Of a stretch of DNA of 35,979 nt, positions 9,705 through 21,009 are shown piece by piece. The stretch spans positions 1-35,979 of the forward strand of contig JAEOSU010000023.1 of the NCBI GenBank assembly GCA_016840165.1. The letters are read 5' to 3'. The notes under the pieces were generated by a model, which worked only from the letters and a program-made list of their open reading frames with translations, was not told the DNA's origin and did not search any database. The DNA is from Promethearchaeota archaeon. GTDB lineage: Archaea > Asgardarchaeota > Lokiarchaeia > Sigyniarchaeales > SOKP01. Position 1 is the first letter of the stretch. The number at the start of each line of letters is the position of its first letter. The position numbers were made by a program, and so were the translations under genes.

Positions 9705-9741
9705 TCAATTTACCATTTAATAATAAAAAAATGTGAAATTT

Positions 9742-11142
9742 ATGTCTAATGTAGAAAGAGAGCAATTTTCTCTAAAGCATTCTTTAGCCTATAGTTCGGG
9801 ATTATTTTCGGATGTATTATCCTACCAATTTTTTACATTTCTGATTTTCACCTTTTACTATTCCGTTATTGGCTTACCCTCTGATTGGATAACACTAGCA
9901 TTTATTATTTGGAGCATCTGGAACGCTCTGAATGACCCAATGTGGGGCATTATTTCAGATAGAACTAACACCAAATGGGGAAGACGACGTCCATATATAA
10001 TAATAAGTTTTATTCCACTTTGTGTAATCACAGTACTTCTATGGACACCAATCACTACATCATCGATGACCACTTTTTTCTATTTCTTAATAATTATAAT
10101 TCTCTTTGACACTATCTATACATTATATAGTATTAATCAAACCTCACTCTTCCCAGAGATGTTTCAGTCACTTGCAATTCGATCGAAAGTTAATAATGTA
10201 AGGCAGATATTTTCCGTTATTGGACTTATTTTTGCTTTTATTTTACCAGCATTCTTTATTCCCGATTATACTTTATCCCAATATGCTCCTAATTATATTG
10301 TGACAGGGATTATCATGGCAATCGTTATGGCTATTGGAGCGTTAATCTTTATTAAATGGGGGATTAAAGAGAAAGCGATATTTGCTGTAGATAAGGAATC
10401 AAACCCATCATTTTTTAAATCGATGGGTTTTACACTTAAGAATCGAGCATTTATTTGTTATGCGTTAACAGCCCTCGCTAATTGGTATGTATTTGGAATG
10501 CTTCCAACAATTGTTCCCCTCTTTGGAAGATTTGCACTCGATACTCCGGAATCATTTCTTCAGTCAATTCTACTTGGATTAGCATTTATTTCCGCTATAA
10601 TTTTCATCTTTTTTTGGCGTTTTGTAACTCTTAAGGTCGGATTAAGGATTGGATTCATATTGTCTATGTTATCATTTATAGTTGTCTTAATTCCATTCCT
10701 ATGGATCTCTGATTTTATGTCAGGGTTAATCGCGTTTTTTTTTGTTGGTCTAGGATTATCTGGCTCCTTATTTTTTAGAGATCCTTTGGTTTCTGCTATT
10801 GCCGATGAAGATGAACTTAGAACAGGAGTCCGAAGAGAAGGAAGTTTTTATGGGGTTAATGCCTTGATTATAAGATTGTCTACTATATTTATCTTTGTTA
10901 CAATCAACTCTGTGTTTGTCAGTACAGGATGGAAAGTTTTTGCTCCAGAGACTGCTACTCCTGCGGAGATTATCATTTATGCAAATGGCTTACGAATGCT
11001 AATGTTTACTTTCCCAGCAATAGCGCTAGCTTTTGGAATTTTTATAATGTTCCTTTTCCCTCTTACTAAGGAAAAAATGGAAAAAGTTCGCGAAAAGGTT
11101 AATAAATTGCATGAAGAAAAACATGCGCGATTATCAAAATAA
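9742..11142 (+). CDS. GPH family (MelB/YihO-like, MFS_2) glycoside:cation symporter
   Basis: WNALNDPMWGIISDRTNTKWGRRRPY and DEDELRTGVRREGSFYG motifs. ATG 9742 is preferred over GTG 9733. Confidence 0.9.
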   Translation: MSNVEREQFSLKHSLAYSSGLFSDVLSYQFFTFLIFTFYYSVIGLPSDWITLAFIIWSIWNALNDPMWGIISDRTNTKWGRRRPYIIISFIPLCVITVLLWTPITTSSMTTFFYFLIIIILFDTIYTLYSINQTSLFPEMFQSLAIRSKVNNVRQIFSVIGLIFAFILPAFFIPDYTLSQYAPNYIVTGIIMAIVMAIGALIFIKWGIKEKAIFAVDKESNPSFFKSMGFTLKNRAFICYALTALANWYVFGMLPTIVPLFGRFALDTPESFLQSILLGLAFISAIIFIFFWRFVTLKVGLRIGFILSMLSFIVVLIPFLWISDFMSGLIAFFFVGLGLSGSLFFRDPLVSAIADEDELRTGVRREGSFYGVNALIIRLSTIFIFVTINSVFVSTGWKVFAPETATPAEIIIYANGLRMLMFTFPAIALAFGIFIMFLFPLTKEKMEKVREKVNKLHEEKHARLSK

Positions 11143-11209: not shown

Positions 11210-12520
11210 ATGACTATTAAAAATCAACCAAACATTATTTTATTTATTACCCATGATCAGGGGCAATTTCTTGGCTGTTATAACTCTGTCCAAACGCCAA
11301 ATTCTTTAAACACCCCTCACTTAGATGGACTTGCTAAAAATGGAATAAGATTTACAAATTATTTTTGTACTGCTCCACAGTGTAGTCCAAGTAGAGGTGG
11401 TATCCAAACATCTTTATATCCTCATCAAAACGGATTAATGGGATTAGTAGATCGTGGTTGGACGTTACCAGAATCGAATAAAACTCTTCCGATGTATTTG
11501 AAAGAAAACGGTTATAGTACTCATTTAATGGGATTTCAACACGAATCTTTTGATGCTCATACGTTAGGATATGATACTATTAGTAAAAGAAGGTCTGAAC
11601 CTCTTTATAATTGTCACAAGATGAATAAAAATTATCAACAATTTTTCAAAGAACATCAAAATGATAGGGAGCCCTTTTTTCTAAATATAGGCGTAGTTCA
11701 AGTGCATCGTCCTTTTGGTTTATGGGCTGGTACTCCTGTGAATCCAGAGAATGTAAAGATTCCACCTTATTTACCAGATAATGAAACAGTAAGGGAAGAT
11801 CTATCCCAATTTTATAAGGCAATTCAAGGAGTTGATGATTGTATTGGTAACATATTACAAATGTTAGAAGAATTTGGATTAAGGGATGATACTTTATTTA
11901 TTTATACAACTGATCATGGAGAGGCGTATCCTAGAGCAAAATGCACTCTCTATGACCCTGGAATCAAAACTCTCTTACTCATATCTCATCCAAATTCAGA
12001 CATTATCAAAAAGGGGACTGTGTATGAGCAAATGGCTAGCAATGTTGACCTAATGCCAACCCTCTTAGACTTAATAGGAGCGGAAATTCCTAAAAAGATT
12101 GAAGGGAGAAGTTTTTTACTACTTTTGAAAGGGGAAACAGAAACCTTTAGAAAAGAAATATATTCAGAAAAAAGCTTCCATGAAGTATATGATCCTATTC
12201 GTAGCATTAGAACTGATAGATTTAAATTCATTATAAATTTTGGAAAAAATCAAGATCGGTATCAGATAGCTGCTGATATGCGTCAAGATGCTTTAGGTAA
12301 ATATTTTTTGAATATTGTTGAGAAAAATAGACCTGATGAGGAACTTTATGATCTTAAAAGTGACCCAAATGAACAGAATAATCTAATTGATGAAATTAAT
12401 TATAAAGAAACAGCAAAAGAATTAAAAGATAAGTTATTGGATTGGATGAGAAGAACAGATGATCCACTTCTTAAAGGTAAAATTAAAGATCAAAGGTCTG
12501 AACCACCGATTAAGTATTGA
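11210..12520 (+). CDS. Formylglycine-dependent sulfatase (N-sulfoglucosamine sulfohydrolase-like)
   Basis: PNIILFITHD, CSPSR (CxPxR), YTTDHG, AKCTLYD, ELYDLKSDPNEQNNL. Confidence 0.92.
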   Translation: MTIKNQPNIILFITHDQGQFLGCYNSVQTPNSLNTPHLDGLAKNGIRFTNYFCTAPQCSPSRGGIQTSLYPHQNGLMGLVDRGWTLPESNKTLPMYLKENGYSTHLMGFQHESFDAHTLGYDTISKRRSEPLYNCHKMNKNYQQFFKEHQNDREPFFLNIGVVQVHRPFGLWAGTPVNPENVKIPPYLPDNETVREDLSQFYKAIQGVDDCIGNILQMLEEFGLRDDTLFIYTTDHGEAYPRAKCTLYDPGIKTLLLISHPNSDIIKKGTVYEQMASNVDLMPTLLDLIGAEIPKKIEGRSFLLLLKGETETFRKEIYSEKSFHEVYDPIRSIRTDRFKFIINFGKNQDRYQIAADMRQDALGKYFLNIVEKNRPDEELYDLKSDPNEQNNLIDEINYKETAKELKDKLLDWMRRTDDPLLKGKIKDQRSEPPIKY

Positions 12521-13324: not shown

Positions 13325-13493
13325 TAACACGATTAATACTTATCATTATTACTGTATTTTTCTAAAACTATGAACAGCATTGATTAATTGTTATTGATTT
13401 ATCATCACTCCTTATTACCAATAACAAAGCTTATAAGATTATTTTGGTTATTGGGTTATGAAATTATGAAAAACTTATAAAAATCTGAGTATC

Positions 13494-13685
13494 ATGAATC
13501 ACAGCAAAGACATTTTATTTTTTCTAATAATTATATGTTCAATAATGGGATTCGCTTCAATATTATTTGTTAATGGTATTGTATCATGAGGAGATAGGCA
13601 AAGAGGTTTTGATGTATCATTTGGTGTAATATCTATTATTGTTGCTTTCTTACTTGTAATATATTTTCAATTGGAAAGAAAATGA
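13494..13685 (+). CDS. Small two-TM membrane protein with in-frame TGA (candidate selenoprotein or pseudogene)
   Basis: Manual translation: MNHSKDILFFLIIICSIMGFASILFVNGIVS[TGA 13587-9]GDRQRGFDVSFGVISIIVAFLLVIYFQLERK[TGA]. Missed by the ORF track. Confidence 0.45.
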
Positions 13686-13706
13686 GTAATCTTAAAACTA
13701 ATATAG

Positions 13707-13742
13707 ATGATTCCTACGAGAAAATGGTAGTCATAGGATGAT
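13707..13742 (+). ncRNA. SECIS-like hairpin (AUGA...AAAA...UGA kink-turn-type core)
   Basis: AUGAU-UCCUACGAG-AAAA-UGGUAG-UCAUAGGA-UGAU. UCCUA/UAGGA and GA/UC pair above a UGAU/UGAU quartet. Lies 21 nt after the TGA-containing ORF. Confidence 0.4.
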
Positions 13743-13840
13743 AATCCTTGCAAAGGATAATATTATTAAGAGAATTGGTTAAGATTTCATCTTATTATAA
13801 CTTAGGGTTCCTTAAAAAAAAAGAAATTTAAAAAACAAGA

Positions 13841-15799
13841 TTATTCTTTAACATCTGCTAATTCTGAGAATAATATTTTAAATTCAGATTGTTTTCTGTA
13901 AAATACTGGAGGTTGTCCTAGTGGAGCCTCAACTTCAATCCAGCCATGTTCATATTCTTTTCCTGACCAGAGATGTATCCATGCATCATCTGGTAAATAG
14001 ACATTCCAATTATCAATTCCTGGTTTAATCACGGGTGCAACTAATAAATCTTGACCGAGCATAAATTGATATTTCAGATGATATAGTTCCTGATCACTTA
14101 CGTAATGCATAAAACATCCTCTCATTGGAGGGATGCCATACTCTTGATACTCATTAGAAAGATGCTTCAAATAAGGAGTTAAATAAAGATGAATTCTAAC
14201 CATTTTTGATAAGTGATCAAGCGTCTCATCGTCGGTATCAAACTGCCAATTCGCATCAGGGCGATTTCCTTCATGAGTGCGCATAAACGTAGAAAAAGTG
14301 GCAATCTCTGCGGATCTCATAAAAAGTTCTTTGGATCTTGTATAATTTCTATAGGTTGTATAGCATCCGATATCAAAATGATAATATCCAATTCCACACA
14401 AGCCCATATTAATACTTGAGGGAATTACTGAGGGAAGTCCTAATTTTTTATCCCAATCAACTCGCTGATCTCCCGAGAAGTGCATCATAGTATATTTTGA
14501 AGAGTGTGTAAAACCAGAGCGAGTGAAAAACATTACCTTATCGAGCAGGTTCTCTTCTTTAACTGCTTCAAAATTGAGTTTATTCCATAATGTTGGAGAT
14601 AAGTTATGAAATTCTTCTCCTGATACTCCTGAATTTAATAAAGCATCGACAGGAACATACTCGCCATAATCTACCATCCACCCATTCATACCGATACCAA
14701 TCATATTTTTCTTAATTATGGATTTAATCCAATCGACCGCATCTGGGTTAGAAAAATCAAGTTGTGCTGCGGGAAAATCCGTCATCATAACCAGATAGTC
14801 CTCTCCCTTATCATTTTTGATGCAATATCCCTTTTTTGATGCTTCTTTGTAAAGATCTCCTTCAATTGCAAGCATAGTATTGATGTATCCCATGAATTTA
14901 ATTCCTTTTGAATTTAACTTTTTAATATACTCGGGGAGATTAGGATATATTTTTTCATCATATTTCCAATCCCAGAATAATTGTTTTCCAAAAGAAGTAT
15001 ATCTTATACCTTCCCAATCTTGACACCAAACGCCCCCAACTTTAATATCATGTTTTAGTGCGGTTTCGATTTTTTTATCTACAATTTCAGGTCCTCCTTG
15101 AACTCCGAGCCATATTCCATCATAGATCCACTCTGGTGGCTTTGGTTGCAATCCGAGATATTTATTAAGCTTTTTGACTGTATCTAAAAATGTTTCGCAC
15201 TTTTCAAAATAAATTTGAGTTGGTATGCTCCAAATATATAATTCATTTTTATTATGCTCGGTGAAATCAAACTCAGAATAAGCATTAGTATCCACATGAC
15301 AGTAATAATTATACGATGATATAAAATTAGGTTGAGGATAATAAGTATGACTAGATCTTGTTGGAGGAGACGCATCTTCCACCCATATTGATATCATTTT
15401 GCCCTTTAAATTTAATTCTGAGAATTGTTCTCCACATCCAAATATAGCCTCATCTTCATCTGATTCTAATTTCACCCAAAAACGATTGATGGTTTTATCC
15501 TCACATTTAGGAGTAATGATTAGTTTATTTTCTTGAATATAAAATTCTATTACTATTGAATATTCATTATAACTAAATTCAATTATAATTTGATTATCCA
15601 ATTGAGATAAGATCTTAAAATCTTGAAGAGAAATCCTTTTTTTTAATTTGTCTTGTATATTAAAGGAAGAATGGTTTTGCTTAAATTTCCCAGTTCCGAT
15701 CCCCATTTCAAAACAAGGATTTTTTTTGGTATGAGAAAATACTTTATACTCCCTATAATAGATATTAAATCCTTCATCAATCGATTCTAATCGAATCAT
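13841..15799 (-). CDS. yihQ: Sulfoquinovosidase (GH31, YihQ/SftG-like)
   Basis: WLGVQGG, WCQDWEGIRYTSFGK..FWDW, WMVDYGE (nucleophile Asp), GDQ (acid/base), GCYTT and MRTHEGNRP. ATG 15799 forms an ATGA overlap with the isomerase stop. Confidence 0.88.
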   Translation of the reverse strand: MIRLESIDEGFNIYYREYKVFSHTKKNPCFEMGIGTGKFKQNHSSFNIQDKLKKRISLQDFKILSQLDNQIIIEFSYNEYSIVIEFYIQENKLIITPKCEDKTINRFWVKLESDEDEAIFGCGEQFSELNLKGKMISIWVEDASPPTRSSHTYYPQPNFISSYNYYCHVDTNAYSEFDFTEHNKNELYIWSIPTQIYFEKCETFLDTVKKLNKYLGLQPKPPEWIYDGIWLGVQGGPEIVDKKIETALKHDIKVGGVWCQDWEGIRYTSFGKQLFWDWKYDEKIYPNLPEYIKKLNSKGIKFMGYINTMLAIEGDLYKEASKKGYCIKNDKGEDYLVMMTDFPAAQLDFSNPDAVDWIKSIIKKNMIGIGMNGWMVDYGEYVPVDALLNSGVSGEEFHNLSPTLWNKLNFEAVKEENLLDKVMFFTRSGFTHSSKYTMMHFSGDQRVDWDKKLGLPSVIPSSINMGLCGIGYYHFDIGCYTTYRNYTRSKELFMRSAEIATFSTFMRTHEGNRPDANWQFDTDDETLDHLSKMVRIHLYLTPYLKHLSNEYQEYGIPPMRGCFMHYVSDQELYHLKYQFMLGQDLLVAPVIKPGIDNWNVYLPDDAWIHLWSGKEYEHGWIEVEAPLGQPPVFYRKQSEFKILFSELADVKE

Positions 15800-17112
15800 T
15801 TGATTACTTTCCACCCCTTAATTTTTGCGAAAATCTCAAATGGTCTAATAAAATCACCATAAACCACAGAAATATGATGGGCAATTCCGTTTTGAATTAT
15901 TTTATTTAAGACTTCTCTTACATGATCTTGAAATTCTACTTTCACATAGGTGCCTTTTAACTCCTTTTCCATAGGGATACCCTCTGCTTTTTGAAGAAAT
16001 AAACGATATTCGCCAGGGGTGTAATCTATTCTCAACATTGAGAGATCTCCTGGCTTCATTACGAAATCTGCCGTCACTCCTTTTCCTCCAGCAAAATAGG
16101 TATCAAGTGATCTGTTGCATACTCCATCCCAAAGATTACAAGCTGCAACTCCACAATGCCATAATAATCCAAAATCCTCGTTAAAATCTACCTGGGAAAA
16201 GTCAGATAAAAAGGGATTTTTGCCTCCTATTGCTTGATGAGCTAACATTGAAAGAGATCCTAAAATGTCTCCTTCACAGGTTAAAATTTTATTTTCCATT
16301 TGTAAGAATGACATTGCTGCACAGGGTGAAATTCCATAATTATTCGCAAATTCAGGCCAACATCGTATTGCAAGCGCATCAAGTTGGTTTTGTTCCAAAA
16401 ATTTCTCAAACTTAGCTGTCAAAGAGGCTACCAGATTCAATTGTTCCTCACTTATTCCTGATACATCGAAAATAGTTTGGATTTGTTCCCTTCTTTCATT
16501 TACTTGAACATGATTGACTTCTAATGAGAAGACTTCATTCAACTCGTAATGATCAATAAGAATTCCTAACTCTCGATAAAGATCTAACTCATCAACATCC
16601 AAATTAAGAAACCCTTTCGCTCGATAGCCAATAATACCTATATGACTCGAAGAAAATACCTTAAGTATTCGAATTGCATCAAGCCAGTCAACATCAATCT
16701 CTTTTCCTATAACCACATGATAATTTTTAACCCCTGCTTTATAGAGATTACTGGAATTTAAGTTGATTCCACATACCGAGTTAAGCCGTATTTTTCCACC
16801 ATCATATGGTAATTCCTCTAAACCCCACAATAAAATTGGTCTTTGAATTTTCTTATTCAATTCCAATATCAGATGGCCTAATGCAAAAGTTCCACTAATA
16901 CAGACTAACGCATCGACTTGTTTTGCTGTTAGATAAGCAGCTGCCTGCTGAGCTTCATTAATTTCAATTACCAAATGATCTATAAAATGCCACTCGACTT
17001 TTTCGATCTTTTTTAGATCATTTTTGATTTGAAAATAAATCTCTTCTGCTGCTTTATAATCAAAAGTTTTACGTGCAACACAAACTACACCTACTTTAAT
17101 TTCTTGTTTCAT
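15796..17112 (-). CDS. L-fucose/L-arabinose isomerase family protein; likely sulfoquinovose isomerase (SftI/SqvD-like)
   Basis: SGTFALG, RLNSVCG, AIRCWPEF, CEGD, LWHCG and IAHH motifs. RBS AGGAGG. Operon context. Confidence 0.82.
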   Translation of the reverse strand: MKQEIKVGVVCVARKTFDYKAAEEIYFQIKNDLKKIEKVEWHFIDHLVIEINEAQQAAAYLTAKQVDALVCISGTFALGHLILELNKKIQRPILLWGLEELPYDGGKIRLNSVCGINLNSSNLYKAGVKNYHVVIGKEIDVDWLDAIRILKVFSSSHIGIIGYRAKGFLNLDVDELDLYRELGILIDHYELNEVFSLEVNHVQVNERREQIQTIFDVSGISEEQLNLVASLTAKFEKFLEQNQLDALAIRCWPEFANNYGISPCAAMSFLQMENKILTCEGDILGSLSMLAHQAIGGKNPFLSDFSQVDFNEDFGLLWHCGVAACNLWDGVCNRSLDTYFAGGKGVTADFVMKPGDLSMLRIDYTPGEYRLFLQKAEGIPMEKELKGTYVKVEFQDHVREVLNKIIQNGIAHHISVVYGDFIRPFEIFAKIKGWKVIK

Positions 17113-17995
17113 TATTGAATCCTCCTATTTCTTTTTCTAAAACTTTAATTGTAGCAGAAAAATCTTCATCGGCATACTTATCAATACCATTATTATACAC
17201 ATCTAATACTCTCTTAGCGCCTGGTAAATCTAATCCTAACTTCTGAGCAAACTCGATGATCAAGTGCATGTCTTTATGCATGTTACGAAAGGAGAATTTT
17301 GGGGTGAAATCTCGTTTTTTAATGCTTTTTGCTTTTACATCCAAATAAAAATTTTGTCCTCCTCCCGCTGCAATTCCAGGAGCAATCTTATCATATTCAA
17401 TGCCTGCAACTTTTGCCATGAGAATCATCTCGTTGACTCCATTTTGTATATTTCCAACGAGCATATTATGGCACATCTTCATAGCTAAACCCTTGCCATT
17501 CTCCCCAAAATATATTATTTCCTCTCTCTTCCCCATATATTCTAATATTGGCTTAATCTTCTGAAATGTATCGAAATTTCCTCCAACATAAATACCTAAA
17601 TTACCGGCAATTGCGGCAGCTTGACTTTTCACTACAGGAACGTCCATCATGGTACTTCCAGCTTCCCTGACTTTCTCTGCCAATTCCATGGATAATGATG
17701 GAGAGATGGTACTCATATCGATATATATCGTCCCCTTTTTCATAATGGGAAGAAGCCCATTCACTACTTCTTTTACATTCTCATTTGTTGGGACCATGCT
17801 AATAATTATATTACAGAAATTTGCAACTTCTTCTAAGGTTTCGCAATTTATCGCTCCTTCACTAACCAATTTATCAATTTGCTTTTTATTAATATCGAAT
17901 ACATAGACTGAACAGTTTCCCTTCTTTATAATATTGCGACACATATGCTCTCCCATCGTCCCAAGCCCAATAAAGCCAATTTTCAATGATTCCAT
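17096..17995 (-). CDS. Beta-hydroxyacid dehydrogenase family; likely NADH-dependent sulfolactaldehyde reductase (YihU/SftR-like)
   Basis: IGFIGLGTMG, DMSTISP, DVPVVKS and KMCHNML. RBS AGGTGA precedes ATG 17995. Confidence 0.8.
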   Translation of the reverse strand: MESLKIGFIGLGTMGEHMCRNIIKKGNCSVYVFDINKKQIDKLVSEGAINCETLEEVANFCNIIISMVPTNENVKEVVNGLLPIMKKGTIYIDMSTISPSLSMELAEKVREAGSTMMDVPVVKSQAAAIAGNLGIYVGGNFDTFQKIKPILEYMGKREEIIYFGENGKGLAMKMCHNMLVGNIQNGVNEMILMAKVAGIEYDKIAPGIAAGGGQNFYLDVKAKSIKKRDFTPKFSFRNMHKDMHLIIEFAQKLGLDLPGAKRVLDVYNNGIDKYADEDFSATIKVLEKEIGGFNNETRN

Positions 17996-18006
17996 TACTA
18001 TCACCT

Positions 18007-18681
18007 TTATAGGGAACCTAGTTCCGTATCATCCCAGGCATCTTGGAAGATTTTTAATCCTTTATCAGTAAAAGGATGCTCAAAACTACTTTTATATACT
18101 TCGAATCCCGCGGTTACAATATCTGCTCCCATTATCGCAGCCTCAACTATCTGCTTGCCGTTCCTTACAGCAGCAATTATTATTTCAGTGTCAAAATCAT
18201 AATTACGATACATTGAGACAATATCTGACATCAATTGAGTACAATCCACCCCAGATGCTTCTTGCCATCCGATAAATGGCGAGCAGTAAGTAGCACCTAA
18301 TCTCCCTGCTTGTAAAGCCTGCGAAGCAGTAAAAACTAAGGTTACATTTACTTTAATTGAAGCTTCAGTAAGCTTTTTTGTTGCTATTAATCCTTTTTCA
18401 TTACAAGGAATTTTAATTACGAAATTATGAGATAGTTGAGCGATCTTCTTAGCTTGTTCTATCATTTCTTCAGCTTTGGTAAGGTGCGGATCGATTTCAA
18501 CTGAGATTGGGAATTCTATGTCATCAAATTCACTAGCAAATTCTTTAATTACCGAAAAAAACGGTTTCCCTGAATTTTTTACATGTTTAGGATTCGAGGT
18601 GACTCCATTAATCTTCCAATTTTCCAATGCATATTTTATCTCATCTATTTTAGCACTATCTAAAAAATATTTCATCTTCAT
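18007..18681 (-). CDS. Transaldolase/FSA family; likely sulfofructose transaldolase (SftT/SqvA-like)
   Basis: MKYFLDSA, GVTSNPKH..SGKPF, FPISVEI, FVIKIPC (Schiff-base Lys), SPFIGW (Trp where generic transaldolases have Arg) and AAVRNGKQIV. Confidence 0.88.
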   Translation of the reverse strand: MKMKYFLDSAKIDEIKYALENWKINGVTSNPKHVKNSGKPFFSVIKEFASEFDDIEFPISVEIDPHLTKAEEMIEQAKKIAQLSHNFVIKIPCNEKGLIATKKLTEASIKVNVTLVFTASQALQAGRLGATYCSPFIGWQEASGVDCTQLMSDIVSMYRNYDFDTEIIIAAVRNGKQIVEAAIMGADIVTAGFEVYKSSFEHPFTDKGLKIFQDAWDDTELGSL

Positions 18682-18831
18682 CTTCCGTTTTTGCTTTAAT
18701 TATATTTCTCAAGAAAGTAAAAAATCCATAAGATTTATGGTTTTCTTCTCTAATCAATTAACTCCAACTGCTCTTTATTTTATGATTAAAATTTAAATAA
18801 ATTTAATCAAGAGTAAACACAATTTCTATAT

Positions 18832-19338
18832 ATGATAACATTTCATGACAGTATGATTGAATATCAAAACCAACTAAAGAAAGGGATAATTCAGAAAGCT
18901 TATCGGGGATTAATGCAATATTTTGGATCCTTGAGATCATATTTTAAAAAGAATTATCCCGATTACTCTGTGTCAGGTAGTATTTATTTTGGATACATGG
19001 ATATGACATATTTTGCATTCAATCCACCTTTATTGAAAGATCGAAAATTAAAGATTGCGATTATATATTTGCATAAGGAATTCAGATTTGAAGTATGGTT
19101 GGGAGGATATAATAAAACTGTTCAGAAAGAATACTGGGATTTGGTTAGGGAAAGGGATTGGAATAAATACCATATTCCGTCAAGTATAGAAGGAATCGAT
19201 TCTATTGTGGAATATATTTTAGTTGATCATCCGGATTTTAGTGATTTAGATGCACTAACTATACAAATTGAAAGAGGAACAATGAATTTTGTAAAGGATG
19301 TTGAAGATTTCTTATCCCGTTTAAATATAATTGAATAA
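18832..19338 (+). CDS. Conserved hypothetical protein
   Basis: 168-aa ORF with YFGYMDMTYF and FEVWLGGYN. Resembles a widespread DUF; function unknown. Confidence 0.7.
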   Translation: MITFHDSMIEYQNQLKKGIIQKAYRGLMQYFGSLRSYFKKNYPDYSVSGSIYFGYMDMTYFAFNPPLLKDRKLKIAIIYLHKEFRFEVWLGGYNKTVQKEYWDLVRERDWNKYHIPSSIEGIDSIVEYILVDHPDFSDLDALTIQIERGTMNFVKDVEDFLSRLNIIE

Positions 19339-19383
19339 ACTTAATTAAAAATTAAAAATAGGAAAATATGAGTCTGAATAACT

Positions 19384-20160
19384 ATGCGAATCATTGACAG
19401 TCATGCTCATATATTTGATTCTCCAGGATATGTAGAGAATCTTATTAATGCAATGGATGAAAATAACATTGAAAGAACTTGTGTAAGTGGATTAGGGAAA
19501 AAATTTAAGTGTATGGACAATCAAGGGATAAAACAAATTCTTGGTCAATATCCGGATCGTTTTATTGGAGCCTACTATATTCGGCCTGGTTATAATAAGG
19601 TCGAAGAAGTTCAAGAGGCTTACACACAAGGGTTTAAGATGCTCAAAATTACTTTACCAAAAAAACCATATGACGATCTTAACTATTTTCCATTATGGGA
19701 ATCTGCGCAAATACTTAAAATGCCAATTCTCTTTCATACTGGAGTGGTCACCCTCCTAAAACCTGCAAAACAAGAATATATTTCTTCCTGGTACATGCAT
19801 CCTATGCGTCTTGAACCGATTGCAAATTCATTCCCCAAATTAAACATGATTATAGCCCATTTAGGTGTACATTGGAATGAAGATGCAGCAGAGGTGATTC
19901 GTATGAAAAAGAATGTATTTGCTGATCTCTCAGGGGCTCCAATGGGATGGAGGGTGAGAGCTGATAAAATCGGAATGGATCATTATTTATGGTGGAAAGG
20001 CGCGTTTAAAAAAATCGTTTTTGGAACAGATGTTTTTTACACCCAGATCACGCAAATTCTTAAGGAGGATATGGTCAGATTGGATAAGTTAAATATAGAT
20101 CATGAAACCCAAAAACTCATCTTTTCCGGGAATATATTAAAAATGTTAGGTGAGAAATAA
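19384..20160 (+). CDS. Amidohydrolase family 2 metallohydrolase
   Basis: IIDSHAH, ILFHTG, IIAHLG, FGTD. Confidence 0.88.
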   Translation: MRIIDSHAHIFDSPGYVENLINAMDENNIERTCVSGLGKKFKCMDNQGIKQILGQYPDRFIGAYYIRPGYNKVEEVQEAYTQGFKMLKITLPKKPYDDLNYFPLWESAQILKMPILFHTGVVTLLKPAKQEYISSWYMHPMRLEPIANSFPKLNMIIAHLGVHWNEDAAEVIRMKKNVFADLSGAPMGWRVRADKIGMDHYLWWKGAFKKIVFGTDVFYTQITQILKEDMVRLDKLNIDHETQKLIFSGNILKMLGEK

Positions 20161-21009
20161 TTGATTATAAGAAGCGATGAGATCCGAACATTATTAAACT
20201 TAACGCCAGAAAAGGTGATTGAAAAGGCGGGAGACCATCTTTTACTATGTAAGGATTTAGAAGAATTACATCATCATTTTGCTAAGAGTATTTTTGATGA
20301 AATTCAGAAAAACAATATTCAAAAAAAGCCTACAAGACTCATTCTTCCAGTTGGACCAACAGGGCAATATCCAATATTAACTACCATGATTGAAGAAGAT
20401 CAGCTTTCTTTAGAGCATTGTTGGTTTTTCTTTATGGACGAATATTGCGATGAGGATGGTTTTGCTCTTCCGACTACTCATCCTTTAAGCTTTAAAAGAA
20501 TTGCTAAAATGCTGTTTCTTATTCCTCTTAAAGATGGTTATGGATTAAATTATGAGCAAATTATTTTCCCTGACGAATTGAATATCCATAAGTTATCAAA
20601 GATGATAAGGGAAATTAATGGCATAGATACATGCTATGGAGGCATTGGAATTCATGGCCATGTTGCTTTTAATGAACCTTCTGCAAGGGTTTTTGATTCT
20701 GATTCTCGAAAGGTGCGATTGAATAAATATACCATAACTATGAACGCAATCCGCTCTCAAGTAGGTGGAAATTTGGTAAATTTTCCCAAATTTGCTTTTA
20801 CGTTAGGAATGAAGCAAATACTAAGAGCCAAAAGAATTCGCTTATATTGTCGAAATGGGAGCCCTTATGATTGGGCAAATACGATCTTAAGAATCGCGTT
20901 ATTTGGAAACCAAGGAGATGATTATCCTGTAACATATATCCGTAAACATCCTGACTATAAAATAATCACCGATAAAGATACTTTAGAATCTCCTAAAAAT
21001 GTTATCTAA
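20161..21009 (+). CDS. Glucosamine/galactosamine-6-phosphate isomerase-like (NagB fold)
   Basis: LPVGPTGQY, FMDEY, GGIGIHGHVAFNEP and TLGMKQI. TTG start directly after the previous TAA, RBS AGGTGAG. Confidence 0.82.
   Translation: MIIRSDEIRTLLNLTPEKVIEKAGDHLLLCKDLEELHHHFAKSIFDEIQKNNIQKKPTRLILPVGPTGQYPILTTMIEEDQLSLEHCWFFFMDEYCDEDGFALPTTHPLSFKRIAKMLFLIPLKDGYGLNYEQIIFPDELNIHKLSKMIREINGIDTCYGGIGIHGHVAFNEPSARVFDSDSRKVRLNKYTITMNAIRSQVGGNLVNFPKFAFTLGMKQILRAKRIRLYCRNGSPYDWANTILRIALFGNQGDDYPVTYIRKHPDYKIITDKDTLESPKNVI

Follow-up and report, generated by a model that had tools for sequence, protein, structure and literature searches.

The window analysed here, a whole contig (JAEOSU010000023.1; 35,979 bp), belongs to the 3.6-Mb bin of a Promethearchaeota archaeon (105 contigs, 99.7% complete, 6.3% contamination). 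Four co-directional minus-strand open reading frames (ORFs) at 13841-18681, overlapping or abutting and each preceded by a Shine-Dalgarno site, likely represent a sulfoglycolytic sulfofructose-transaldolase (sulfo-TAL, or SFT) operon in a Lokiarchaeia-type Asgard archaeon. In order of transcription, these are:

18007..18681, minus strand: sulfofructose-transaldolase-type enzyme (SftT/SqvA-like; TAL), first gene of the operon (Pfam TAL_FSA, E 2e-43)
17096..18004, minus strand: NAD(P)-dependent beta-hydroxyacid dehydrogenase (RED), candidate sulfolactaldehyde reductase (Pfam NAD_binding_2 and NAD_binding_11)
15796..17112, minus strand: AraA/FucI-fold aldose-ketose isomerase (ISO), divergent relative of SftI/SqvD and candidate sulfoquinovose-to-sulfofructose isomerase (Pfam Fucose_iso_C)
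13841..15814, minus strand: YihQ-family glycoside hydrolase of family 31 (GH31), candidate sulfoquinovosidase, Arg301-to-Gln variant (Pfam GH31, three domains, E 3e-42)

Every junction of the four genes shows translational coupling, so that a GH31 enzyme, a FucI-family isomerase, a sulfofructose transaldolase and a candidate sulfolactaldehyde-converting enzyme, the gene set of a sulfo-TAL cluster, are coupled in one operon. TAL could start at ATG 18675 (giving MKYFLDS, as in BmSF-TAL, the sulfofructose transaldolase of Priestia megaterium) or at ATG 18681, the former being probable. The most likely start of RED is the ATG at 17995, 11 nt past the TAL stop (18009-18007) and preceded by AAGGTGA. 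The ATG of ISO, at 17112, lies 17 nt within the end of RED (stop 17098-17096) and follows AGGAGG. The ISO stop (TGA, 15798-15796) and an ATG at 15799-15797 share bases in an ATGA that is preceded by AGGGGTGG, and GH31 therefore most likely starts at 15799 rather than at the GTG at 15814. The 516-bp stretch downstream of GH31 (13325-13840) is without a called ORF. The first-pass annotation, made from the letters alone, had described four coupled minus-strand genes with ribosome-binding sites; this layout is confirmed, with two start codons (GH31 and RED) corrected, and the motifs it quoted are all present (QDWEGIRYTSFGKQLFWDW and RTHEGN in GH31; YFLDSA, NPKH, SPFIGW and RNGKQ in TAL).

Enzymes of the operon

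Judged from sequence, the transaldolase step would be the best-supported step of the proposed pathway, because TAL is ~60% identical to a solved sulfofructose transaldolase and keeps all catalytic and sulfonate-orienting residues. Its score against BmSF-TAL (8bc2-4; 8bc3) is 308 bits, vs 168 for the best generic transaldolase (Tal; 1vpx) and 77 or less for fructose-6-phosphate aldolases (FSA). Aligned to BmSF-TAL, it retains D6, E61, K89, N111, S133, F135, W138, A170 and R172; PMC11659671, citing Snow 2023, gives D6/E61/K89 as the catalytic triad, N111/S133 as sugar-orienting and W138-A170-R172 as sulfonate-orienting. At the site described there as sulfonate-orienting, TAL has W/A/R where generic Tal, from the same phylum as well as from Bdellovibrio, has the phosphate site R/S/R; position 30 is occupied by K in TAL (NPKH), by R in BmSF-TAL and by S or T in generic Tal. 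The 49 sequences compared fall into two clean classes (NP[KR]H/W138/A170/R172 vs NP[ST]L/R138/S170/R172), and a maximum-likelihood tree places the W/A/R clade apart from generic Tal with support of 100/100. Bit scores, W/A/R residues and tree placement outside generic Tal all bear out the SftT/SqvA-type assignment first proposed for this gene. Both classes also appear across 400 genomes of the phylum, one 66-84% identical to TAL (~38 genomes) and the other 37-44% (~130), with some genomes carrying both; these and later counts for the phylum are descriptive only, as related genomes are not independent. An FSA-type aldolase cleaving sulfofructose directly was considered and rejected, since TAL has Glu61 and Phe135, which mark transaldolases, and not the Gln and Tyr of FSA-type aldolases.

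GH31 reaches 773 bits on NF007746, the NCBI equivalog model built on E. coli YihQ (cut-off 553), as against 232 on the alpha-xylosidase and 131 on the MalA model (NCBIfam). In direct comparison, the characterised sulfoquinovosidases E. coli YihQ and Eubacterium rectale SftG (6pnr) give 625 and 599 bits, with a range of 599-630 across solved YihQ-family GH31 structures. In alignment with E. coli YihQ (K-12 record), the nucleophile D405 and acid/base D472 are kept, and the residues at the positions compared are Q262, Q288, K300, Q301, W304, D405, D472 and Y508. The published sulfonate pocket is Arg301-Trp304-Tyr508(H2O) (PMC8006165; PMC12780224). Because Arg301 is Gln, the enzyme is filed here as a Q301 variant and not as a proven sulfoquinovosidase. 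The YihQ-type call made in the first pass thus stands with respect to family, the equivalog cut-off being passed and scores lying far above those on alpha-glucosidase and alpha-xylosidase models, but it had overlooked the replacement of the Arg301 hallmark. Among GH31 itself and its 120 best database relatives, the motif QQKQWDDY occurs in 46/121, QQKRWDDF in 26/121 and the canonical QQKRWDDY in 12/121. Some Lokiarchaeota GH31 records carry the automatic name 'Sulfoquinovosidase'.

Two bacterial Q301 GH31 genes are clustered with genes for a split transketolase and an RpiB-type isomerase, DUF4867 being present as well in one of the two clusters. Clusters with split transketolase, RpiB and DUF4867 match the Pfam signature of the sulfoglycolytic transketolase (sulfo-TK) pathway (PMC11968277), and the presence of the Q301 variant in two such clusters argues for sulfoquinovosidase-like working. 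As a control, a canonical-Arg GH31 relative was found in a cluster with phosphofructokinase (PFK), class II aldolase and 2-hydroxyacid dehydrogenase, of the type of the second sulfoglycolytic Embden-Meyerhof-Parnas pathway (sulfo-EMP2). The window GH31 is treated here as a YihQ-family enzyme of the Q301 variant type that very probably works as a sulfoquinovosidase, though it departs from one published hallmark of these enzymes.

The only NCBIfam match of ISO is SftI (NF048012; E 3e-68, 230 bits, residues 7-423), covering the full length, while its Fucose_iso_C match is just above the Pfam threshold (29.7 bits vs cut-off 29.3). A sequence search of the PDB gave no match at E 1e-3. The AlphaFold model (pLDDT 89, pTM 0.90) matches L-arabinose isomerase with a Foldseek TMq of 0.88 and L-fucose isomerase with 0.79. 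In one of the bacterial transketolase-type clusters (L105), the gene preceding the Q301 GH31, and overlapping it, aligns with ISO at 61% identity and without gaps. The ISO + GH31 module is thus found with a transaldolase in some clusters and with a transketolase in others; that each of these enzymes acts on sulfofructose gives good contextual support for a sulfoquinovose-to-sulfofructose isomerase. ISO is a candidate for this role, as a separate branch of the SftI family.

Several observations weigh against assigning the operon to sulfoglycolysis. In GH31, Q288, W304 and Y508 of the sulfonate pocket are kept, but with Gln at Arg301 the pocket does not match the published one, and the Asgard GH31 enzymes examined beside a W/A/R transaldolase each lack either Arg301 or Tyr508. 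ISO lies far under the SftI equivalog cut-off (230 vs 700 bits), and its identity to SftI-like genes, compared for a Lactobacillus-family sft cluster and a SAR324 locus, is no more than 24-28%. The best NCBIfam model for RED is tartronate semialdehyde reductase (197 bits, under the cut-off); on the YihU model it reaches 152 bits vs a cut-off of 348, and it is 29% identical to E. coli YihU, with H179 and V183 at the positions of YihU N174 and S178. TAL is the only TAL-family gene found in the window genome (tblastn) and could also serve ordinary pentose-phosphate exchange, as no second transaldolase was found. In L037 and L061, which have neither ISO nor GH31, W/A/R TAL genes are likewise accompanied by sulfatase, NagB-like and amidohydrolase genes. 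DUF4867 (SftX), a mutarotase and a TauE-type exporter are absent from the window; the operon, initially called complete, is so in its four enzymatic steps, and neither an exporter nor a mutarotase is part of it.

The best curated and solved matches of RED are tartronate semialdehyde and hydroxyisobutyrate-type enzymes. In YihU the sulfonate is bound by N174, S178 and the backbone amide of R123 (PMC8006165); R123 aligns with K126 of RED. With 29% identity and N174/S178 replaced by H/V, RED is not YihU-type, and the SftR/YihU label that it first received gives way to a role assigned by position. RED orthologues (52-58% identity) follow TAL in five other archaeal clusters, four from Asgard archaea (L031, L036, L055 and L079) and one titled Bathyarchaeota (L058). 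A permease of the AEC family (Mem_trans) lies downstream of RED in four of these five clusters, directly after it in three, and the window genome has an AEC permease, 43-47% identical, on another contig. We infer from this position that RED acts as a sulfolactaldehyde reductase and that 2,3-dihydroxypropane-1-sulfonate (DHPS) is the end product. In two genomes of the same genus (G260 and G264; L068/L069), the slot of RED between TAL and ISO is filled by a membrane-anchored molybdopterin oxidoreductase (L069:11837-12889) with Oxidored_molyb and DUF4079 domains, of a sulfite-oxidase-like fold family, which hints at sulfite handling beside the pathway.

Neighbouring genes and other readings of the locus

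The operon is flanked by the following features:

9733..11142, plus strand: GPH-family (MFS_2) sugar:cation symporter, candidate importer of sulfoquinovose or its glycosides (Pfam MFS_2, E 6e-58; TIGR00792 GPH, 151 bits)
11210..12520, plus strand: Cys-type sulfatase with the CSPSR active-site motif (Pfam Sulfatase and SGSH_C)
18682..18831: A+T-rich divergent intergenic region between the TAL operon and the DUF7000/amidohydrolase/NagB-like operon, read from the sequence
18832..19338, plus strand: DUF7000, first gene of a divergent three-gene unit (18832..21009)
19384..20160, plus strand: Amidohydro_2, second gene of the divergent unit
20161..21009, plus strand: NagB-like deaminase/isomerase, third gene of the divergent unit

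The GPH symporter is 22% identical to E. coli YihO, and the family is present in three to five copies directly upstream of TAL at three other loci (L032, L066 and L076). Sulfatase orthologues adjoin TAL in L036, L037, L040, L044 and L046. Together with the symporter and sulfatase, a protein of 242 residues is encoded convergent to the operon. The A+T-rich region presumably holds putative promoters of both divergent operons. The DUF7000/Amidohydro_2/NagB-like unit, which also flanks TAL in L031, L034, L037, L040 and L069, is probably linked to the operon. Its NagB-like protein keeps catalytic D72/H143/E148, while phosphate loop 41-44 is two residues short and K208 is lost after a conserved PYDW insertion. 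The NagB-like family yields 2500 matches at E<=1e-30 and is highly conserved in Asgard archaea.

The sulfatase, NagB-like and amidohydrolase genes around the operon suggest substrates for the island beyond sulfoquinovose. A Planctomycete locus (L061, 1804-10378, from a metagenome-assembled genome (MAG) of Fuerstiella sp.) encodes three sulfatases, Amidohydro_2, a W/A/R transaldolase, a NagB-like protein and a PIG-L de-N-acetylase, without GH31 or a FucI-type isomerase; its Amidohydro_2-family gene has no detected orthology to that of the window. This operon may specify an undescribed route for a sulfated amino sugar.

The window island could serve a different or additional sulfur sugar, with TAL as the hub for a 6-sulfo or 6-O-sulfated ketose derived from a sulfated hexosamine. 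The NagB-like, amidohydrolase and sulfatase proteins would then be feeders, and the substrate of the Q301 GH31 would be a glycoside different from classical sulfoquinovosyl glycerol. We consider this reading unlikely, though less so than the others weighed below. It draws on the intact D72/H143/E148 of the NagB-like protein, accompanied by loss of the phosphate loop and K208; on the CSPSR site of the sulfatase; on the departure of the GH31 sulfonate pocket from the published motif; and on the two loci (L037 and L061) where NagB-like, Amidohydro_2 and sulfatase genes flank a W/A/R TAL that has neither ISO nor GH31 beside it, with the de-N-acetylase of L061 in addition. However, in the window TAL is translationally coupled to RED, ISO and GH31 and not to the NagB-like unit, a Q301 GH31 and the same isomerase recur in bacterial transketolase-type sulfoglycolysis clusters, and we know of no pathway of this kind for 6-sulfo or sulfated hexosamines. 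A combined scheme is held to be equally doubtful: the W/A/R TAL of Asgard archaea and some Planctomycetes would be the hub of two feeders, one being the classical path from sulfoquinovosides via GH31 and the isomerase and the other an undescribed hexosamine route. There, a 6-sulfo or 6-O-sulfated hexosamine would be deacylated and then deaminated and isomerised by the NagB-like enzyme, giving sulfo- or sulfated fructose for TAL, and the adjacent Cys-type sulfatase would act on the product or a precursor. The hub idea is weakened by the NagB-like family being found on two further long contigs with no transaldolase within 7 kb.

An ordinary carbohydrate operon for non-sulfonated sugars, in which GH31 would be an alpha-glucosidase, ISO a sugar isomerase, TAL a housekeeping transaldolase and RED a hydroxyacid dehydrogenase, is very improbable. 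TAL being the only transaldolase found in the genome, the many GH31-relative records named 'alpha-glucosidase' and the position of RED and ISO under all curated cut-offs are compatible with it. Against this, generic Tal of the same phylum forms a separate clade with R138/S170, GH31 scores far higher on the YihQ model than on the alpha-xylosidase or MalA models, and the isomerase accompanies W/A/R TAL in 35 of its 38 genomes.

Asgard origin and distribution

The Asgard origin of the contig, as first proposed, is solid: composition, homologue titles, backbone synteny and recurrence of the cluster at more than 20 Asgard loci, among them contigs of 504-672 kb and a closed genome, all agree with it. 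The tetranucleotide profile of the contig lies in the middle of the bin. The nearest relatives of TAL (75-84% identity) are in records titled Promethearchaeota, Promethearchaeia, Promethearchaeum sp., Hodarchaeota and Hermodarchaeota, from many independent studies and on contigs of up to 672 kb, and the closest GH31 and NagB-like homologues are likewise Asgard-titled (including Lokiarchaeota). rRNA and tRNA genes were sought for taxonomy, with none found on the contig and no archaeal small-subunit rRNA in the genome. That the contig is bacterial contamination of the bin, and the pathway not archaeal, is hardly credible: the 6.3% contamination estimate, a contig free of rRNA and tRNA and a pathway otherwise known only from bacteria would allow it, but the mid-bin composition, the Asgard-titled homologues, the synteny of the backbone genes on either side of the island with a contig of the same family and the presence of the core genes, non-contiguous, in a closed genome speak against it.

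The backbone genes on either flank, Hdr-like, MvhD and MR_MLE among them, show synteny with the same-family contig L080 (G174:C16). In the part of the window compared with it (6.7-26.7 kb), the whole carbohydrate and sulfosugar island lies between Hdr-like/MvhD genes and an MR_MLE-family gene; in L080 only a GH31 and one other gene fill this interval, which is therefore a variable insertion hot spot.

The gene order TAL-[RED]-[AEC permease]-ISO-GH31 recurs in the more than 20 Asgard loci. Across the 400 phylum genomes, a YihQ-like GH31 was found in 55, W/A/R TAL in 38, ISO in 47 and all three in 33. The closed genome (G138:C1, a single contig of 6,035,313 bp; L078, L079) carries TAL-RED-FKBP-aminotransferase-AEC permease-ISO at ~1.78 Mb and a YihQ-like GH31 at ~2.99 Mb, ~1.2 Mb away, so that the core genes are not one contiguous cluster. 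Twelve Asgard genomes (including G270, G212, G271 and G235; L070-L073) have ISO, mostly with a Q301 GH31, and no W/A/R TAL was found in them. A transketolase replacing TAL was looked for in L070-L073, where the neighbours checked are unrelated (Glu dehydrogenase-CBS, luciferase-like and esterase); many such MAGs are incomplete. Alpha/beta-hydrolase genes near these loci could encode sulfolipid esterases. An exchange of the gene set with bacteria, followed by its spread among Asgard archaea, is probable.

Window DNA is present in marine-sediment metagenomes, probably its source, and soil-labelled metagenomes match about half of its sequence words; no RNA dataset is listed among the runs matching the operon.

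Proposed pathway and comparison with known systems

Read as a sulfo-TAL operon, the locus would specify the following route. From context, the GPH symporter would import sulfoquinovose (SQ) or sulfoquinovosyl glycerol. The GH31, a member of the YihQ family by sequence, would release SQ, and the AraA/FucI-fold isomerase would convert it to sulfofructose, a role suggested by SftI homology and by the module shared with transketolase-type clusters. TAL, with W138/A170/R172, would move the C1-C3 dihydroxyacetone unit of sulfofructose to glyceraldehyde-3-phosphate, yielding fructose-6-phosphate and sulfolactaldehyde. The former would enter glycolysis, for which the window genome encodes PFK and class-I-type aldolase candidates. 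The latter, as context suggests, would be reduced by the beta-hydroxyacid dehydrogenase to DHPS, regenerating NAD+, and DHPS might be exported, perhaps via the AEC-family permease encoded elsewhere in the genome. From this we infer DHPS excretion and cross-feeding. A DHPS-degrading glycyl-radical enzyme was sought, and none of the six glycyl-radical enzymes of the genome reaches the HpsG/HpfG cut-offs. They lie on contigs C27, C63, C8, C30, C6 and C36 (L096-L101); one is a trans-4-hydroxy-L-proline dehydratase (HypD, 1273 bits), and the one on C36 adjoins a GPH transporter paralogue.

SQ is an abundant sulfur sugar of plant and algal membranes, of which ~10 billion tonnes are produced yearly. 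As read here, the operon places a sulfo-TAL pathway of bacterial type in a new domain, and its distribution among Asgard archaea is broad enough to be ecologically relevant. If this is true, Asgard archaea in anoxic sediments ferment SQ from sinking algal and cyanobacterial sulfolipid and join the organosulfur cycle, with sulfite-respiring partners receiving C3 sulfonates, DHPS among them, in line with the known syntrophic lifestyle of these archaea; for organisms so difficult to cultivate, SQ would also be a sugar substrate that is both defined and selective. The Arg-Trp-Tyr sulfonate signature of sulfoquinovosidases would not be universal, which bears on marker surveys based on yihQ; such surveys are reported to perform poorly in marine sediment (PMC13219744). 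According to a 2026 review, every known pathway for degrading SQ is bacterial and none has been characterised in archaea (PMC12890257), and a 2020 survey of sft clusters lists bacterial phyla only. A literature search for sulfoquinovose, sulfoglycolysis or sulfoquinovosidase in connection with Asgard, archaea or the names of lineages turned up N-glycan work, a note on GH188 in Hikarchaeia and nothing else; it found no paper describing sulfoglycolysis in Asgard archaea, in keeping with the first-pass annotation, which knew of none.

Of the known systems, the sulfo-TAL pathways of Priestia aryabhattai SOS1, P. megaterium DSM 1804 and E. rectale (sftATXGIFDE/sqv) follow the same GH31-isomerase-transaldolase-reductase logic (PMC7491151; PMC11968277). 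In the variant of anaerobic Clostridia, sulfolactaldehyde is reduced by a beta-hydroxyacid dehydrogenase, as proposed here. A GPH-family importer is likewise near in the bacterial systems, and TAL shares the triad, sugar-orienting residues and W/A/R of BmSF-TAL. Unlike these systems, the window has an archaeal host and is without DUF4867 (SftX), a TauE-type exporter and a sulfolactaldehyde dehydrogenase; its GH31 is of the Q301 type, its ISO belongs to a distant branch and its RED is not YihU-like at the sulfonate-binding residues. The exporter candidate of related Asgard clusters is an AEC-family (Mem_trans) permease and not of TauE type.

At the level of single enzymes, GH31 resembles E. coli YihQ and E. 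rectale SftG (5aed, 5oht, 6pnr) over its full length (~600-625 bits), with both Asp residues, Q262, Q288, W304 and Y508 in common; Arg301, the only charged sulfonate ligand of those enzymes, is Gln in the window. RED shares with E. coli YihU the beta-hydroxyacid dehydrogenase fold family, the catalytic Lys and the position in the pathway, but differs at the sulfonate ligands N174/S178. With bacterial sulfo-TK clusters (Clostridium sp. MSTE9 type; PMC11968277) the window has the pair of ISO and Q301 GH31 in common, the two genes overlapping alike in L105; there a split transketolase with an RpiB-type isomerase would cleave sulfofructose, whereas in the window this step would fall to the transaldolase.

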